A stretch of 11,881 bases of DNA, from IMG/VR virus record IMGVR_UViG_2579778791_000016, positions 1-11,881 of that record. One strand, 5' to 3'. The notes under the pieces are model-generated. The model saw only the letters and a program-made list of their open reading frames with translations. It ran no database searches and was not told where the DNA came from. Position 1 is the stretch's first letter. Every line of letters starts with the position of its first letter. The position numbers and the translations under genes were made by a program. The stretch is from a virus. Lineage: Duplodnaviria > Heunggongvirae > Uroviricota > Caudoviricetes. This document shows positions 2,255 to 10,620 of the stretch, piece after piece.

Positions 2255-2692
2255 TCATCGAAGGCATTGCGTCCTAATGTACTCCTGCAAGTAGTTAACC
2301 TGCGCGGTTATCCTGTCGATTCCACTTCGGAGACGGTAATAATTGAGTTCAGCATCTGCTGTAAGTCCTGGGGTTTCTCCATTGCCCATGCCGCTGGCTC
2401 CGGTCGTTGACTTTGCACAGGTGGCGGCGACTTGCAGGCGCTTACGCCCAGCAGAAACATCAGCACGGAGACTTTCGATAGTCGCATTAGCATCAGCAAG
2501 CTCCTTTGTGTATCTGGCGTCAAGTTCTGCTACATCACGTTGCCGCTTCTGCATATCAGCGATGATGGATGTGGCTTTATCGCGCTGCTCTTTGTAGGCG
2601 ATGGCGTTATCACGGTAATGATTAACAGCCCATGAAAGGCAGACGATGAGGCAGATGACCAGAACGTAGATAATCGCGGTTACTCTGCTCAT
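2255..2692 (-). CDS. Rz: Rz i-spanin (inner-membrane spanin subunit)
   Basis: Translation [31 protein letters not shown]...[11 protein letters not shown] is close to lambda Rz as recalled. The start ATG at 2692 overlaps the R stop (ATGA). The ORF-track start at 2704 is four codons upstream. Confidence 0.85.
2308..2493 (-). CDS. Rz1: Rz1 o-spanin lipoprotein, embedded in the +1 frame of Rz
   Basis: [41 protein letters not shown]... has a lipobox plus a proline-rich stretch like lambda Rz1 (VVGCTSK...PPPPPAW). Lies wholly inside Rz in another frame. Start chosen at the ATG at 2493; ATGs at 2487 or 2523 are alternatives. Confidence 0.75.
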
Positions 2693-3186
2693 TGTTGCCC
2701 CCACAAACAGACTTCACGCTCAATCTCACGGCGAGTCATCAGCCCTTTCCATTGCTTACCGCCAGCGTATGTCCAGCGCCGTAGCTGATCACATGCGCCT
2801 TTGATATCGCCCTGGTTTATTTTGCGAAGAAGCGTCGATGTTCTGAAATTGCCAGCGCCCACGTTGTAAACGAACGAGTAAAGAGCGCCGCGCGTTGTTT
2901 CCGGTATATCGACGTTGATGTACGGGTTTATTTGTCTGGCGACCGTGGCAAGGTCTTTATTCAGGAGGGCTTTGCATTCTGCTTCGGTATACGTTTTACC
3001 GGGCATGATGTCTTTTCCGGTGTGTCCGTGACATACAGTCCATACGCCAACGATATCTTCGTATGGTATGTAGCTGACACCTTCCAGGCCATCGTCACCA
3101 CTCGGACCAGTGATGAGCACAGACGCTATGGCAACAGCCCCACCACCAATAGCAGCAGCAACAGCCTTGCGTAATGACGGCGACAT
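2689..3186 (-). CDS. R: SAR endolysin (phage-21-type lysozyme with N-terminal signal-anchor-release domain)
   Basis: [30 protein letters not shown]... has a Gly/Ala-rich SAR helix followed by a lysozyme domain, and is near-identical to phage 21 R as recalled. Start overlaps the S stop (TAATG). Confidence 0.9.
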
Positions 3187-3392
3187 TATTCACCTCTCGC
3201 AGCCTTACGCTTATCTTCTTTAATCTTGAAATAAAGGTTTGTCAGATACGTCAGCAGGCCAAACAGCAGACTCCCCAGCACACCTATTGCCACCCACTGG
3301 GACGGAGAGACTTTGTCCAGCAGCTGCAGTAACCAGTATCCCGTCCCCACCGCTGACGTGGTGTATGACACACCTGTTGTGATTTTTTCCAT
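3186..3392 (-). CDS. S: Pinholin (class II holin, S21-like)
   Basis: [68 protein letters not shown] has two transmembrane segments and a basic C-terminus, closely resembling S21-68. GGAG Shine-Dalgarno 10-14 nt upstream. No in-frame upstream start, so no dual-start antiholin is apparent. Confidence 0.85.
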
Positions 3393-3435
3393 CTGATGTA
3401 TGTCTCCGTCACCGCCGACAGAAAATGAAAGTAAA

Positions 3436-3473
3436 GAAAAACAAAAAAGCCGCCAGTGTCACCCACTGACGGC
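3436..3473 (-). terminator. Intrinsic terminator 44 nt upstream of the holin start codon
   Basis: Minus strand GCCGUCAGUG-GGUGA-CACUGGCGGC (10-bp stem with one U-G pair) followed by UUUUUUGUUUUUCUUU. Confidence 0.6.
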
Positions 3474-3648
3474 CAACGCCGGGAGCCGTGATTATGGCAT
3501 TCAGGCTCTGCTAAAAATGCCAGATAACATTCCGGCCAACCCCTGATTCAGGTTATAAATGACACAATATCTTGACAACATCCGTCACTGTCTGTCAGAA
3601 AATGTACTGCCAAGTATAAGTATCATGTGAAGTACATCTACCCGTTTT

Positions 3649-3684
3649 AGCCAGCGTCCTTCAGAGTGGGCGCTGGCTTTTTTT
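3649..3684 (+). terminator. Plus-strand-specific intrinsic terminator abutting the nanS-p stop codon, antisense to the late operon
   Basis: Plus strand AGCCAGCG-(12-nt loop)-CGCUGGCU followed by UUUUUUUAUUAU. On the minus strand the same hairpin is preceded by an A-run and followed by AAAACGGG, so it should not terminate late transcription. Confidence 0.5.
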
Positions 3685-3685
3685 A

Positions 3686-5536
3686 TTATGCTGCCGGTGC
3701 ATTTATCTCCAGCACCAGACTTTCTATCTCAACACCATACGCTGCATTTTTGGTAATATCCGTCAGCGTCAGCGCATTCAGCCCCAGTGTCAGACTGTCT
3801 TTTATGACCTGGAATGCCGGGCCAGCCACTCCATTCAGTTTCGGAGTAACCGTGGCACTGCCGGCGGTGAACACCAGCTCCAGCGTCTGCCAGTCGTTAC
3901 CGTAATCGCCGAACTCCCCCAGCTTCGTGTTTCCGGCTTTCCTGTGATGCATCAGATTCACTCTGCCGTCAGTGGTCTGAGTGAAGTGCGACATCAGGAA
4001 CGGATTACCGGTACCCGTCATCGCCACACCATCAGGAACGGGAGCGTCCGTATACAGATAAATCCCCAGCCCGAACTGATTGTTGGTCAGTGCGCCTGAG
4101 AGGCGGAACTTACAGGTCAGTCTGCCGCCCTGTGTCAGCAGGGTAATTGCGTCATCCACCGGATGCATCAGGGACCAGGTTTTATTGCTCTGCTTGGTGA
4201 TCTTAAATACACCATCTGACAACTGAATTCCGCCGTCCTTAATGGTCCAGCCCTGCGCAGCAGCATCTCCGGCTGTCGGCATCAGGGAGATTGTGCGTAT
4301 GGATGCATCTTCAGACGGCCCCGATGGCGTGTTGCCGCCGGGCGAGGGTTTGATTTCCGGTGCCTTACCACTGATGAAGGCTGAGGTGCGCCCGGCTGCG
4401 TTCAGAATAGCGGTTGCCAGACGATCCGGAATAATGCTCCTGCGCGCCCATGAACTGAAATGTGTCGGGCGGTTTGATGATACCTGGTTTCCATTCGTTC
4501 TCGATGCCGCACCGTAATATCCTGATGCCGGAATATCCGGATCTTCTGCCGGCGCGTTAGTGGCGGTATTGACGCCGTTACCGTCTGTCATGAAGGGCAC
4601 AAAATAAACGCCCTCACTCTCCCTGTTTTTATACCCGCCGTACACGGTGTCGTACTGGGTAGCGTATGTATTTTTCCAGTAATACGTCGTGTCACCACAA
4701 ACCCACGGCACATCTGCAGCACTGCCACCATGACACTGCGCGTTAAACACAGAGAGGTCAGCACGAAACTGCGTCAGCATGGCTGTAAACAGCGCAGGTT
4801 GCTGTGCGTAGGTGGCGGCGCTCATGTCAAACTCACCCTGCATCCAGCAGACGGCCAGCAGAACGTTTTTGGGATTTTTCTGCAATGCCGCTTTTGTGCG
4901 GGAAATCAGATCCTGATATAACGGCTTGCCCACCCCCCAGCGTGCCGAATCCTGACTGGCCCCCGTGGACTCGCTGAATGTCCCCTCCGCGCCCTGGGTA
5001 AATGCCGAACCACCACGACAGCATGGTACCAGCAGGATCCCCGCGTTATTCGGGATATACGGGAGCAGTTTTTTGGCAATATGTAAACCCTGACCGACAC
5101 AGCCGTACTGCCCTTTGCTCAGGTCAGCCCTCGGATGATTCAGCGTACTCATATCCTGCACATCATGCAGACAGTGGTCAGCCGGAATAATATCGTTATA
5201 TCTGCAGGCAGCCCCGCCCGGCGTCACTGTACTGCGGCGCGCCAGCTGTTTAATGCGCGGATCCGGAGCATCGTATGAATCCGGCAGCGGAAGCCCTTCA
5301 CCGTAAGCCATGGCATTGGACTGCCCGGCCAGTACGATGACGTAGTACCAATCCGGCTCAGATGAAGGGCCGACCTGTGCCTCTCCTTCAATAGCCACCG
5401 CCTGCATCAGTGTGTACGGCGTAATGGCAACCGGTCCGCCGTATGGCTGCCAGCCCTCTTTCAGTTTGTGTGTCAGCTTTTCCGCAAGGTCTGACGGCGA
5501 CGCCGCCCTGACAACATCGTAATGTTTAATCGACAT
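3686..5536 (-). CDS. nanS-p: Prophage sialate 9-O-acetylesterase (NanS-p / YjhS-like; N-terminal DUF1737-like region plus SGNH/SASA esterase domain)
   Basis: 616-aa ORF with ATG at 5536 and GGGAGA Shine-Dalgarno. Contains the SGNH block-I motif VIVLAGQSNAMAYGEG. Sits immediately upstream of the lysis cassette, as the nanS-p genes of Stx and related lambdoid prophages do. Confidence 0.75.
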   Translation of the reverse strand: MSIKHYDVVRAASPSDLAEKLTHKLKEGWQPYGGPVAITPYTLMQAVAIEGEAQVGPSSEPDWYYVIVLAGQSNAMAYGEGLPLPDSYDAPDPRIKQLARRSTVTPGGAACRYNDIIPADHCLHDVQDMSTLNHPRADLSKGQYGCVGQGLHIAKKLLPYIPNNAGILLVPCCRGGSAFTQGAEGTFSESTGASQDSARWGVGKPLYQDLISRTKAALQKNPKNVLLAVCWMQGEFDMSAATYAQQPALFTAMLTQFRADLSVFNAQCHGGSAADVPWVCGDTTYYWKNTYATQYDTVYGGYKNRESEGVYFVPFMTDGNGVNTATNAPAEDPDIPASGYYGAASRTNGNQVSSNRPTHFSSWARRSIIPDRLATAILNAAGRTSAFISGKAPEIKPSPGGNTPSGPSEDASIRTISLMPTAGDAAAQGWTIKDGGIQLSDGVFKITKQSNKTWSLMHPVDDAITLLTQGGRLTCKFRLSGALTNNQFGLGIYLYTDAPVPDGVAMTGTGNPFLMSHFTQTTDGRVNLMHHRKAGNTKLGEFGDYGNDWQTLELVFTAGSATVTPKLNGVAGPAFQVIKDSLTLGLNALTLTDITKNAAYGVEIESLVLEINAPAA

Positions 5537-5620
5537 CGAATTTCTCCCGTGTAGAGGAACAGAGTTAAAAAGCCGGAAGCGGAATCAAATCACAGGATGA
5601 CCATCTGCCAGTGGCAGGTC

Positions 5621-5649
5621 ATAAAAAAAAGGCTGCGCAATGCGCAGCC
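5621..5649 (-). terminator. Strong intrinsic terminator upstream of nanS-p; likely 3' end of the upstream cargo unit
   Basis: Minus strand GGCUGCGCA-UU-GCGCAGCC followed by UUUUUUUUAU. Confidence 0.65.
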
Positions 5650-6078
5650 AGAACTCACAAGGAAAATGATAAAAGGAATAACACTAGTGATGTACGCATG
5701 GCGCCTCCCGCTAAGTTCTGCAATGATCAAACAGAACTCGCTACGTGCCCTTAAAACTCGATCATTTAGCCCCTCCAAGGAGGATTCACCATGCGGTTGA
5801 TTTTTTAATAAACAGTAAACAAAAAAGTCAAGAATTATTCATTCTGTTCTTTCATCATCGGCCACAGCAATACCACAATGCCGCAGACCAGAGCGCCATC
5901 AGTCAGTACCAACATTATCCTGCTGGTGAAATCCATCATCACCATCACTAAAAGCAGGATCACAACAGCAAGCAGACACAGTTTATAAAACAATGTTCAG
6001 AAAACGCATTCAGCATGCCTAAGGTTCTATTCCTACGAATAGCCAACTTGCAACTTAAAATATTATTTATGCAGCCAA

Positions 6079-6795
6079 TTAAATTCTGGTCCTTACAATA
6101 TCAACCTGAAGATTCTTATCTTGTGCTGATTGATAAATGACAAACCTTTTACTACCTGCATTGAAAGAAGTAGACAAAACCAGACAATTATCATAACGAG
6201 CAAGAACATAATACCAACCATCATTATAATTAATCATTTCATATTCTTTCTTAAACTGTGGTTTGTAATATCCTGTCAGAAATGAAAAAAGCCAAAAATA
6301 TGCCACAAAAGCAATCATCACAATCTCAAAAAAATGTTTTTTTATAAATGGCTTATCATAGAAGCATGATACCGATAAAAATCGCCCATAAGATCTTATC
6401 GAAATTGTAACCGCCAGCGCAATCGCTGCTGACAGTAGCAAAAGAGGTACCTGAATCTTCTGTCTCAATATAGAAAACTCAATAATTGCCGGCACAAACA
6501 ATAATTCCACAGCAAAATAAAGGCGAAATACATTTAGCTCTTGCATAGAATGTTTTCTTTTCACTGCGAAAAAGAATACAACACCAATACCCCAACCGAT
6601 AAGAAATATAGCAATGACGATAACTGCAAAAAATAAACTTCTGGCAACATCATCAACACCTGCACCTACAATCCACCATGGGAAGCCGTAGTAAAAAGAA
6701 GTACCCCATCCATAGAAATAAGCACTCCCCCATCCAAGGCATCCCATGTAGGCAATAAAAAGTGAAGAACTCCTGAGCAGCGCACCATCCTTCAT
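6079..6795 (-). CDS. Uncharacterised polytopic membrane protein (about 5 predicted transmembrane helices plus a roughly 65-aa C-terminal soluble domain); AT-rich cargo gene
   Basis: Only long ORF in a markedly AT-rich block (track 6079..6837). Hydrophobic segments include LFIAYMGCLGWGSAYFYGW, LFFAVIVIAIFLIGWGIGVVFFFAV, FRLYFAVELLFVPAIIEF, LLLLSAAIALAVTISI and IVMIAFVAYFWLFSFLTGYY. Probable start is the ATG at 6795 (MKDGALL..., GGGGTGG upstream), because the first ATG at 6837 lies inside a promoter-like -10 element. No recognisable family. Confidence 0.6.
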   Translation of the reverse strand: MKDGALLRSSSLFIAYMGCLGWGSAYFYGWGTSFYYGFPWWIVGAGVDDVARSLFFAVIVIAIFLIGWGIGVVFFFAVKRKHSMQELNVFRLYFAVELLFVPAIIEFSILRQKIQVPLLLLSAAIALAVTISIRSYGRFLSVSCFYDKPFIKKHFFEIVMIAFVAYFWLFSFLTGYYKPQFKKEYEMINYNDGWYYVLARYDNCLVLSTSFNAGSKRFVIYQSAQDKNLQVDIVRTRI

Positions 6796-6832
6796 AACCA
6801 CCCCAATACAAGATGATAACATTGGCTTACAA

Positions 6833-6862
6833 CTCATAACAAAAGCAATTCAATGCCGTCAA
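6833..6862 (-). promoter_or_regulatory. Candidate sigma70 promoter of the membrane-protein cargo gene (TTGACG-N18-TATGAG)
   Basis: -35 TTGACG at 6862..6857, -10 TATGAG at 6838..6833, between the Q-proximal terminator and the gene. Judged by eye only. Confidence 0.3.
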
Positions 6863-6933: not shown

Positions 6934-6961
6934 TAAAAAAAACCCACTCGGCAGCGGGTTT
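6934..6961 (-). terminator. Intrinsic terminator about 45 nt downstream of the Q stop codon (candidate tR')
   Basis: Minus strand AAACCCGCU-GCCG-AGUGGGUUU (G-U wobble in stem) followed by eight U. The plus strand also has a partial T-run after the hairpin. Confidence 0.65.
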
Positions 6962-6994
6962 ATACATTTTTTACAACATACCAAATTTGCATGA

Positions 6995-7023
6995 AGTATA
7001 TGGCTTTTAATCCAGTTTTGCAA
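6995..7023 (-). promoter_or_regulatory. Near-consensus sigma70 promoter overlapping the 3' end of Q (candidate late promoter pR' with qut)
   Basis: TTGCAA (7023..7018) - 17 nt - TATACT (7000..6995) on the minus strand. The Q stop codon (7009..7007) lies inside the spacer. A -10-like TGGTATGTT sits in the initial transcribed region. Confidence 0.45.
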
Positions 7024-7696
7024 TATTTTGCTGTAAAAATGCTGCCTTTTGTTTTGAACGTGTTCTCGTCACAAGCAATAAAGCATCACTATCAAGCTGT
7101 AGAAAAATGTGCTTCATTGCAACCCAGCGTTCAGTAAATGTCTCGGACCAGTTTTTTGTTGTCACTCCCACCAATGATGCCAGTGTCTGGTATTCATAGG
7201 CCTCACGCCCTGCAAGTTCGCTCTTCACATCCTGTGCAGCCAGCCAGATTAACGTCTTCAGGCGATCCAGTGTCTTACCTGCAATTTTTCTGTTACTTAA
7301 CAAATCTTTAAACTCGCTCCATGCCCATTGCGTTATGGTGACCTGATGCCCCCATCGAACGCTTTCGCTGTAACACCAAAGCAACCATGCTTTCTGATGT
7401 TCATCGAGAGACAAAACCGCGCGGCGCCATGAAGAGGTTGAGAATTCAACCGGGCTGACCAAAGCAATGGATGAACCTTTTGCGTACGACTGCTTACCGG
7501 AAGTCGGCGTATTATCCCGCGTAATCATCTTGCCAGTTACCACATCCAGAATGCGCGGCTTCTTTCGTTTGTATGTACCAGTATCAAATTGTGCATGCTC
7601 CTGCCAGGCTTCGAGCTGGCCTTTCGTTGCTCCGTTCAAGTCAGCAGTAGCTGCCATAAGTTGCTCACGAACATACTGTAAATATTGGGTATTCAT
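7007..7696 (-). CDS. Q: Q-like late antiterminator (long-form Q family, about 230-250 aa)
   Basis: Positioned after ninI and before the late/lysis genes, with a promoter and terminator at its 3' end. Start taken at the ATG at 7696 (MNTQYLQYVREQ..., AGGA Shine-Dalgarno 8 nt upstream) rather than the track start at 7780. Family assignment rests on context and size, not on recognised motifs. Confidence 0.5.
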   Translation of the reverse strand: MNTQYLQYVREQLMAATADLNGATKGQLEAWQEHAQFDTGTYKRKKPRILDVVTGKMITRDNTPTSGKQSYAKGSSIALVSPVEFSTSSWRRAVLSLDEHQKAWLLWCYSESVRWGHQVTITQWAWSEFKDLLSNRKIAGKTLDRLKTLIWLAAQDVKSELAGREAYEYQTLASLVGVTTKNWSETFTERWVAMKHIFLQLDSDALLLVTRTRSKQKAAFLQQNIAKLD

Positions 7697-8172: not shown

Positions 8173-9132
8173 ATGAAAAAAAGTGTCATCGCTGGCGTCT
8201 TTATTGCTCTGTCATTTACCACGTGTTCAGCTATCGCGAACAGCCTTGCATTATCATTAGCAAATGATGATGCAGGGAAGTTTCAACCAATACTTAATGA
8301 TATTTATGGCAATAAACATGAAAACAGAGATGATTACTCACAAGGCTTATTTCTGGGATATAGCCACGATATCTCAGACTCGAGCCAATTATCTCTCCAT
8401 ATTGCGCAAGATATTTACTCTCCATCAGGCAGTAATAAAAGACACAACACAGCCGTAACTGGAGACAGAGCTTTTAGTGCATACACTCACACTGGTATTG
8501 AATGGAACTCCCTTGCGAATGACTGGATTCGCTATCGATTAGGTACTGACATAGGTGTTGTTGGCCCCGACGCAGGCGGTCAGAAAGTACAAAATAAAGC
8601 TCATGAGATTATTGGGGCAGAAAAATATCATGCATGGGATGATCAAATAGAGAATCGCTACGGTTATACTGTAAAAGGGATGCTATCCATGACACCAAGT
8701 ATGGATATTTTAGGTGCTAATGTTGGATTATACCCTGAAGTTTCTGCTGTTACTGGAAACTTATTTCAATATGTAGCATATGGCGCAACCATTGCCATTG
8801 GTAATGATAAAACCTTCAATTCGGATAATGGCTTTGGTCTGCTGGCTCCCCGTGGTTTAATGCATATGTCCGATACAAGCGGATTCAAATACAAGATTTT
8901 TGCAGGTATGGAAAGACGAGATGTCAATCGCAACTATACTCTCGAAGGAAAAACAATACAGACGAAACAAACAACAGTATCGCTAAACAAAACTGTTGAT
9001 GAATATCAAGTTGGCGCAACAATTGGGTATGCACCTGTAGCCTTCACACTAGCATTTAATAAAGTAACATCAGAATTCAAGACAGGGGATGACTATTCAT
9101 TTATAAATGGAGCAATCACCTTCTTTTTTTAA
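8173..9132 (+). CDS. lpxR: Outer-membrane beta-barrel protein, probably lipid A 3'-O-deacylase LpxR family
   Basis: Signal peptide MKKSVIAGVFIALSFTTCSAIA, predicted mature size 296 aa (the size I recall for mature LpxR), C-terminal aromatic beta-barrel signature ...GAITFFF, AAGGAAG Shine-Dalgarno. AT-rich gene with a long AT-rich upstream region, opposite in orientation to the flanking phage genes. Confidence 0.55.
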   Translation: MKKSVIAGVFIALSFTTCSAIANSLALSLANDDAGKFQPILNDIYGNKHENRDDYSQGLFLGYSHDISDSSQLSLHIAQDIYSPSGSNKRHNTAVTGDRAFSAYTHTGIEWNSLANDWIRYRLGTDIGVVGPDAGGQKVQNKAHEIIGAEKYHAWDDQIENRYGYTVKGMLSMTPSMDILGANVGLYPEVSAVTGNLFQYVAYGATIAIGNDKTFNSDNGFGLLAPRGLMHMSDTSGFKYKIFAGMERRDVNRNYTLEGKTIQTKQTTVSLNKTVDEYQVGATIGYAPVAFTLAFNKVTSEFKTGDDYSFINGAITFFF

Positions 9133-9214: not shown

Positions 9215-9343
9215 TATAAAAGATTAAAAGTTGCAATAAAATAATAAAATGACTCAGTTACGAAAACCAATAAACTGTGGCCAGTAGTGAGTCGCTCATC
9301 ATCGGGCTTTTTGGCGAATGAAATTTAGCTACGCTTTCGAGTC

Positions 9344-10009
9344 TCATGCGCCTTCTCCCTGTACCTGAATCAATGTGAGGTTTCCGCAGAACACTGCGCC
9401 AGTATCGATATACATCTGGTTGGCAAATTTGAGTGGTTTCACTGCTGGCGTATGACCAAAGATGAACGTGTCCGCGCCTTTGATTTCTTTCACGATCCCG
9501 TCTTGTGAGTTGCTGATTCGTTCGCGGTTCCAGATTACCTGCTGATGATCAACTGGCTTTCCAAACTCGTATTTATCACAAGGATAATCGGCGTGGCAAA
9601 TGACATATTTTTTATCTTTGCTCACCAGTTCGATGATTAACGGAAGTTCTTCTGCTTTATGGGCAAGAACTTTAGCCAGAGTCTCTTTGTCGTAATCGAG
9701 ATTAAAGAACCAGCCACCGCCATTAAGCAGCCAGTGATTAACGTTTCCACGCTCTGATAAGCCATCAATCATCATTTGCTCATGGTTTCCACGCACAGCT
9801 CTGAACCAGGGGAATGTGATTAATTCCAGACATTCGACGTTCTCTGTACCGCGATCAACCAAATCGCCAACCGAGATGAGCAGGTCTTTTTTGGTGTCGA
9901 ATCCAATCGTATCCAGTTTGTTCATCAGGTTCGTGTAGCATCCGTGCAGGTCGCCAGCTACCCAAATATTTCGGTATTTGCTGCCATCAATTCTTTCGTA
10001 GATATTCAT
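9344..10009 (-). CDS. ninI: Ser/Thr protein phosphatase (lambda NinI / lambda-PPase homologue)
   Basis: 221 aa with metallophosphatase motifs GDLHG, GDLVDRG and GNHE; near-identical to lambda phosphatase as recalled. Start overlaps the ninG stop (ATGA). Confidence 0.9.
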
Positions 10010-10620
10010 GCAGCCTCACTTCTGCTGTTTCGCAGGTCTTTGAGTTTCTGTTGGTACTCTGCCTTGATCGCCTTGCACTCTTCGACAGTCCAGCGATGGC
10101 GGTTATGGTTTGATTCGATTTCGTCTACTGCTTCCTGCCTGATGCGGCTAATCAGTTCGACGCGATACGGAACGAGATTTCCGCTTTTGTGCTGGTTGCA
10201 CACCACGCATTGCTTGTGAATATTGCGTTCATCAAATCGGAGTTGAGGTGCCGCAGCAGTTGTCCGGTAATGTCCGGCATCCCACTGAGCAGACGTGAGC
10301 GTTCCGCACGAGATACATGGTAAGTCGCGGTCTCTTTCTCTGATGAAGGCGTTTACGGCTTGTTGGGCTTGTTTAATCCAGTAACTGCGGGGCTTTAAGG
10401 CGAGTTTTCGAATCTTAAGTTTATCTTTCTGTTTCTGCTCCTCTCGTCGTCGTTTCTTCTCTGCTGCTTTTTCCGCTTTTTCGCGTTCTTTACTTCGTCG
10501 TTCGAGTGCTATCTTGGTTCCACACTCTGGAGAGCACCACCACTGATTAGCGAATGCAGGGTGAAACCATTCCCGACATTCATCGTTTTTACATCGTCTT
10601 CGCGCTGGTTTAGCCATCAT
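10006..10620 (-). CDS. ninG: NinG / Rap recombination-associated protein
   Basis: 204 aa, [34 protein letters not shown]...; near-identical to lambda NinG as recalled. Confidence 0.9.

Follow-up and report, generated by a model that had tools for sequence, protein, structure and literature searches.

The 11,881-nt stretch of DNA analyzed here (the window) very likely carries, on its minus strand and overlapping the end of its Q gene, a late-gene control module of the phage 82 class, with a sigma70-dependent pause and Q-mediated read-through of the terminator tR'. We infer the start, the pause, Q binding and read-through from homology to the biochemistry of phage 82. Read as its reverse complement, the window corresponds to the late-control region of phage 434 (genome announcement, PMC9119081), with 99.9% identity over the Q region (GenBank record OL657226). 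The module is the late-gene control of phage 434; many E. coli O157 prophages have it too, and it is found nearly base for base in a prophage of O157:H7 and in many other strains. A sequence-only reading of the window had proposed a lambdoid pR'/qut/tR' arrangement at this place, and this proposal is supported by a Q protein of the Q82 family, the conservation of register among related loci, the terminator and the lysis genes downstream. All the elements that it had noted are present at the positions it gave, on the minus strand.

Layout of the late-control module and late region

The module consists of the following elements, listed in the order of transcription.

7007-7696, minus strand: Q antiterminator gene, 229 aa, start MNTQYL..., Pfam PF06323 (Q82 family)
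7018-7023, minus strand: pR' -35 hexamer TTGCAA, within the last Q codons (...I-A-K-L-D)
7001-7017, minus strand: 17-bp spacer AACTGGATTAAAAGCCA, carrying the Q stop codon; by homology, the expected site of the Q-binding element (QBE)
6995-7000, minus strand: pR' -10 hexamer TATACT
6994-6989, minus strand: TCATGC, the bases between the -10 hexamer and the start
6986-6988, minus strand: predicted transcription start AAA, +1 being the A at 6988, in register with the 82-type AAA
6975-6983, minus strand: candidate sigma70-dependent pause element, extended -10-like TGGTATGTT (+6 to +14), in the same register as the 82-type TGATATTTT
6963-6966, minus strand: predicted pause site TGTA (+23 to +26), RNA 3' end at U+25/A+26; an identical TGTA is present in 82-type sequences
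6935-6961, minus strand: tR' intrinsic terminator, hairpin AAACCCGCU-GCCG-AGUGGGUUU (6961-6940, +28 to +49) followed by T8; marked in OL657226
6942-6935, minus strand: T8 run TTTTTTTT, +47 to +54
6934-6988, minus strand: predicted terminated leader RNA of ~53-55 nt, AAAUUUGGUAUGUUGUAAAAAAUGUAUAAACCCGCUGCCGAGUGGGUUUUUUUU, derived from +1 and the U tract

The Q protein matches PF06323 at E = 2e-90, with 216 of the 220 profile positions covered; this is the Q82 family, one of three unrelated families of Q proteins (PMC9388147; PMC9371919). The PDB holds no solved relative of the window Q, and no structure of a Q82-family protein exists. The Q frame ends ...Q-Q-N-I-A-K-L-D-stop, with the TAA at 7009-7007, and the promoter overlaps it. 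In lambda, the pR' promoter lies downstream of the Q stop codon, without overlap.

On the minus strand, ninB to ninI are followed by Q, and the lysis genes S, R and Rz lie on the same strand as pR', downstream of tR'. In the 434 record, Q bears the label 'Q82-like', this terminator is marked, and the late promoter is unannotated. An LpxR-family lipid A deacylase moron (8173-9132, plus strand) sits between ninI and Q on the opposite strand, and just after ninI the 434 record gives a short N-terminal fragment of a lambda-type Q (~9250-9345, minus strand). Both the LpxR insertion and this fragment suggest that an ancestral lambda-type Q gave way to the Q82-type module and LpxR.

The predicted Q-dependent late region contains morons, internal terminators and the lysis cassette.

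2255-6837, minus strand: predicted Q-dependent late region
6837/6822-6079, minus strand: membrane-protein moron, downstream of tR' and followed by small ORFs
5649-5631 and 3474-3448, minus strand: internal terminators
5536-3686, minus strand: SASA/NanS-like esterase, a moron
3392-3186, minus strand: S21-type pinholin, lysis cassette
3186-2689, minus strand: SAR endolysin, lysis cassette
2704-2255, minus strand: Rz, lysis cassette

A second possible origin for late transcription had been named inside this region, namely the TTGACT element near 5828. That the true Q-responsive promoter lies there or elsewhere is extremely improbable. TTGACT (5828-5823, minus strand) matches the -35 consensus at five of six positions, but no acceptable -10 follows at 16-18 bp (ATTAAA, TTAAAA and TAAAAA all lack the T at position 6), the site is not among the matches of the promoter scan, and it has no accompanying Q gene, QBE-like spacer or TGnTATnnT element. 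It coincides with the 5' edge of a match to the small RNA STnc100 at 5824-5620, and is better explained as the edge of an STnc100-like sRNA than as an alternative Q promoter. This match (5620-5824, minus strand; RF02076) spans the full length of the family at 41.4 bits, just short of the gathering score of 47 (E = 2.7e-6). It runs to the strong terminator 5649-5631, and the SASA/NanS-like esterase gene follows directly. In related phages, sRNAs of the PasD/STnc100 type are reported to lie immediately ahead of the esterase gene, PasD itself being in phage 2B8 (bioRxiv 10.64898/2026.05.13.724894), and an STnc100 copy is transcribed at about the corresponding place in EDL933. The stretch 5620-5824 is probably an sRNA gene of this type.

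Between the esterase and holin genes, two strong terminators converge, one at 3649-3678 (plus strand) and the other at 3474-3448 (minus strand). At the esterase-holin position of EHEC and EPEC prophages, convergent anti-sRNAs (AsxR/AgvB) and PasA/PasC have been reported. No Rfam family was matched on either strand of 3448-3678.

Conservation of register in the Q82 family

The promoter had been described as near-consensus. TTGCAA-17 bp-TATACT is indeed present on the minus strand with its -35 hexamer inside Q, but the description is generous, as the promoter scores only 9/12, and 13 other sites in the window score equally. Scans for promoter-like and terminator-like sites were re-implemented, and their counts of 18 and 19 were reproduced. 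The 18 promoter-like sites compare with 19.9 +/- 4.8 expected, so there is no enrichment, and 33% of dinucleotide shuffles of the window contain a promoter-like site followed by a terminator-like site within 15-60 nt (on average 0.39 per shuffle). By itself, the promoter/terminator pair is an insignificant pattern, because a third of the shuffles hold one; the module becomes significant because it stands at the end of a Q gene and has homologs. The window holds a second such pair at 10082-10183 on the plus strand, antisense within ninG, which is most likely fortuitous.

These numbers could suggest that tR' merely ends the transcription unit of Q (early-right), and that the hexamers and the -10-like repeat arose by chance. 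The chance density of promoter-like sites, the frequency of pairs in shuffles, the fortuitous pair within ninG and the 434 record, which marks a terminator and no promoter, would all fit that account. We nevertheless regard it as highly improbable in view of the homologous loci. We compared 19 non-redundant Q82-family loci from at least eight genera (Escherichia, Citrobacter, Raoultella, Superficieibacter, Scandinavium, Enterobacter, Franconibacter, Leclercia and others), whose Q proteins are 60-100% identical. They align without gaps from -35 to +26, with the -35 hexamer, the spacing, the -10 hexamer, the AAA and G(+7)nTATnnT(+14) in exact register. Mean column identity across the 19 loci is as follows.

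-35 hexamer: 0.98
-10 hexamer: 0.95
+1 to +5: 0.88
Pause element: 0.85
+15 to +17: 0.81
Q coding sequence: 0.77
Beyond +27: 0.43

TTGC of the -35 hexamer is invariant in all 19 of these diverged loci, as are -11A and -7T of the -10 hexamer and G+7, T+9, A+10, T+11 and T+14 of the pause element. Codons overlap the -35 hexamer and most of the spacer, so coding constraint confounds their conservation. The stretch from -12 to +17 is non-coding, and its conservation is therefore strong comparative evidence of function: it is conserved as much as or above the Q coding sequence, the 17-bp spacing is fixed, and every locus has GnTATnnT in the register that biochemistry defined for 82 pR'. Chance matches would not persist in this way while the sequence downstream falls to 0.43 identity, which disfavors the reading of tR' as a mere end of the Q transcript.

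The same palindromic TTGCAA could instead serve mainly the plus strand, where TTGCAATATTTTGC (7018-7031) would be the CII site of an antisense promoter of the paQ type. The sequence is an exact TTGC-N6-TTGC, OL657226 annotates a CII site and a paQ -35 here, and the motif is retained in the Q82 modules of the E. coli type. Yet the degenerate pattern behind the annotation is about as common in the window as chance predicts (4 found, 3.5 expected), the motif falls in the Q-Q-x-I-A-K codons, about half of the diverged loci have lost it, and no convincing -10 follows on the plus strand. We consider this role unlikely. It is compatible with the pR' reading, since CII binding would also occlude the pR' -35 hexamer; were the site real, CII would drive an antisense Q RNA and occlude pR' at once.

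The assignment of pR' to the 82 class is based on 82-type leaders (PhiR47_2 and many IMG/VR contigs), which read TTGCAA-N17-TATATT-N6-AAATCTGATATTTTGCCAATGTTGTAC. When their first A is counted as +1, TGATATTTT occupies +6 to +14, followed by GCC at +15-17 and, further on, U at +25, as published for 82 pR'. Because the phage 82 record X92588 ends at the Q stop codon, the 82-type sequences were equated with phage 82 pR' by published positional facts and not by deposited sequence; the phage collection has no separate GenBank record of the phage 82 pR' leader. The published GCC and U+25 fit when +1 is set at the AAA of these leaders, and the same register puts the predicted start of the window at ~6988.

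The module aligns with the pR' regions of Q82-family loci, and its promoter, start and -10-like element match the 82-type base for base. Like the window, phage 82 has a Q of PF06323 (88% identical, X92588), a TTGCAA -35 hexamer inside the end of Q, a near-identical 17-bp spacer, the AAA start, the extended -10-like element at +6 to +14, an AT-rich segment, TGTA at +23 to +26 and an intrinsic terminator ahead of the lysis genes. The window spacer shares 14-15 of its 17 bases with 82-type spacers, and the spacer is 17 bp long in 45 of 46 leader variants; the QBE of phage 82 is located between -35 and -10 (PMC4914094). The two differ in the -10 hexamer (TATATT in phage 82, TATACT in the window), the pause element (TGATATTTT versus TGGTATGTT) and the bases at +15-17 (GCC versus GTA), and the sequences are unrelated from +15 on. 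The hairpin of 82-type leaders is predicted at ~+50 to ~+77, with an RNA of ~80 nt, versus a hairpin start at +28 and ~54 nt in the window. In the 82-type PhiR47_2, ~0.3 kb separates tR' from the holin gene, versus ~3.6 kb of morons in the window.

The -10-like sequence in the initial transcribed region had been suggested as the pause element, and the comparison supports this, as it stands in the same register as the 82-type element and its core bases are invariant in the 19 loci. Studies of 82 pR' found that its pause-inducing element is extended -10-like and nearer to consensus than that of lambda, that sigma70 engages once the RNA is 21 nt long, and that the pause lies at +25/+26, with U at +25 (PMC5001585). 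The pause is modulated by the GC-rich GCC at +15-17 and by an AT-rich segment before the pause; single changes in GCC halve the pause half-life, and changing GCC to AAA cuts it ~5-fold (PMC5001585). The window leader has an AT-rich segment at +16 to +27, and its TGTA at +23 to +26 fits T(-3)N(-2)Y(-1) of the scrunched-pause consensus (PMC9191641). The GCC element is absent, however: the window has GTA at +15-17, and a related locus of a gut Enterobacteriaceae (L015) has GTC. GCC is a modulating and not a family-defining feature. Because only G+15 of it is kept, the pause in the window may, by analogy, be weaker, shorter-lived or shifted relative to that of phage 82.

The terminator and compact leaders

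The strong terminator that had been noted downstream of the promoter consists of a 9-bp hairpin and T8, and ends at 6935. The 9 pairs of the hairpin give -12 kcal/mol, and the 55-nt leader RNA as a whole has a folding energy of -15.3 kcal/mol (z = -3.6 versus shuffles). A 5' mini-hairpin (+8 to +27) in the minimum free energy fold was dismissed, as it is made of weak A-U and G-U pairs. Homologous hairpins of the form ACCCGC...GCGGGT are present in other Q82-family leaders.

The leader had been called unusually short, and at ~54 nt, versus termination at +193 in lambda, it is indeed short. It stands out less than suggested, since the Q82 family has several compact leaders; within the family, the start of the hairpin varies from +28 to about +100 and the length of the leader from about 50 to >120 nt. 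In a compact class of 4 of 18 species-level loci, the hairpin begins at +28 to +30: L006 (Superficieibacter), L014 (Scandinavium), L015 (gut Enterobacteriaceae) and L016 (Citrobacter). In each of them the hairpin directly follows the predicted pause site, and the stems are of the ACCCGC/GCGGGT type, as in the window; they differ from it in that their Q proteins are only 63-69% identical to the window Q, and all four are uncharacterized. Locus L015 (Enterobacteriaceae bacterium MGYG-HGUT-00110, 2160-2260) has a Q that is 63% identical and nearly the whole 434-type leader, TATGTTGTCAAAATTTTATAAACCCGCC; its compact leader sequence, TATGTTGTCAAAATTTTATAAACCCGCCACCGAGCGGGTTTTTT, is almost the same as that of the window. 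Because L015 shares the leader despite 63% Q identity, the compact leader is an old conserved variant and not a recent deletion. It is real and common, not the oddity of a single phage, and is presumably functional.

Counting sequences with 95% identity or more over 181 nt, we found the 434-type module in 620 of 5,426 complete E. coli genomes, about 11%. Among the carriers is O157:H7 EDL933, where the module lies ahead of holin and lysozyme genes. In ~1,000 further genomes, the shared part is the Q end and the promoter to ~+14 only. Phage 2B8 (L004) encodes a lambda-type Q (PF03589), and its pR' is lambda-like. Its positions 2390-2520 are 94% identical to window positions 6960-6800, from inside the terminator onwards only, and its copy of the hairpin, AACCTGCCGCCGAGTAGTTTTT, looks decayed. 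Because the similarity to 2B8 begins inside the terminator, tR' is a mosaic recombination joint between unrelated Q modules.

The lambda module, with its pR'/qut/tR' and 6S RNA, follows the same scheme of a constitutive promoter, a promoter-proximal sigma70 pause, Q loading and read-through of an intrinsic terminator. It differs in an unrelated Q family (PF03589), a pause at +16/17 and termination at +193 (PMC4914094). Another parallel is StxS of Stx phages in EHEC prophages (PMC7547250), where early termination from a constitutive pR' in lysogens likewise gives a short stable RNA; it is a 74-nt Hfq-bound RNA processed from a longer leader, and the Q protein there is of another type (144 aa). 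By analogy, a ~54-nt leader RNA made constitutively in lysogens could act in trans as an Hfq-binding small RNA, but we consider this doubtful. A point against a transcript from pR' is that RNA-seq and ribosome profiling of EHEC (PMC5331693) list no ncRNA near the matching position in EDL933 (~901.6 kb), although RNAs of 54 nt were perhaps missed.

At gathering thresholds, Rfam gives no match anywhere in the window. A permissive search placed STnc240 over the module (7000-6931) at 28.2 bits, against a gathering score of 55. STnc240 is the core-genome yoeI-yeeY sRNA and is unrelated to prophages (10.1101/2021.10.18.464853); for this reason, and because the terminator and an A-run account for the score, this match was rejected.

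Proposed mechanism and significance

We propose that pR' is transcribed constitutively by the host sigma70 RNA polymerase, with +1 at about 6988. Retained sigma70 would re-bind TGGTATGTT (+6 to +14) in early elongation, and the polymerase would enter a scrunched pause at ~+25/+26. Without Q, it would escape and stop ~30 nt later at the hairpin and U8, leaving the ~54-nt RNA. Once accumulated, Q would bind the promoter spacer, engage the paused complex and travel with the polymerase, which, so modified, would resist tR' as well as the terminators at 5649-5631 and 3474-3448 and transcribe the morons, the lysis genes and beyond. Since the terminator hairpin begins only 3 nt after the pause, Q would have to be fully engaged at the pause, which is consistent with the accepted loading model.

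In conclusion, phage 434, a classic phage, now has predicted positions for its late promoter, pause element and tR', of which the promoter and the pause element were previously unannotated, and a widespread prophage of pathogenic E. coli carries the same module. The module was correctly spotted and is essentially ordinary, otherwise confirming textbook biology. Across enterobacterial modules of the Q82 family, the cis-elements of 82 pR' keep an exact register, and the length of the leader is free to vary. The compact variant is a handy natural minimal template for the mechanism of Q82, for instance for testing whether Q82-family proteins act as a closed RNA-exit nozzle (PMC9388147).
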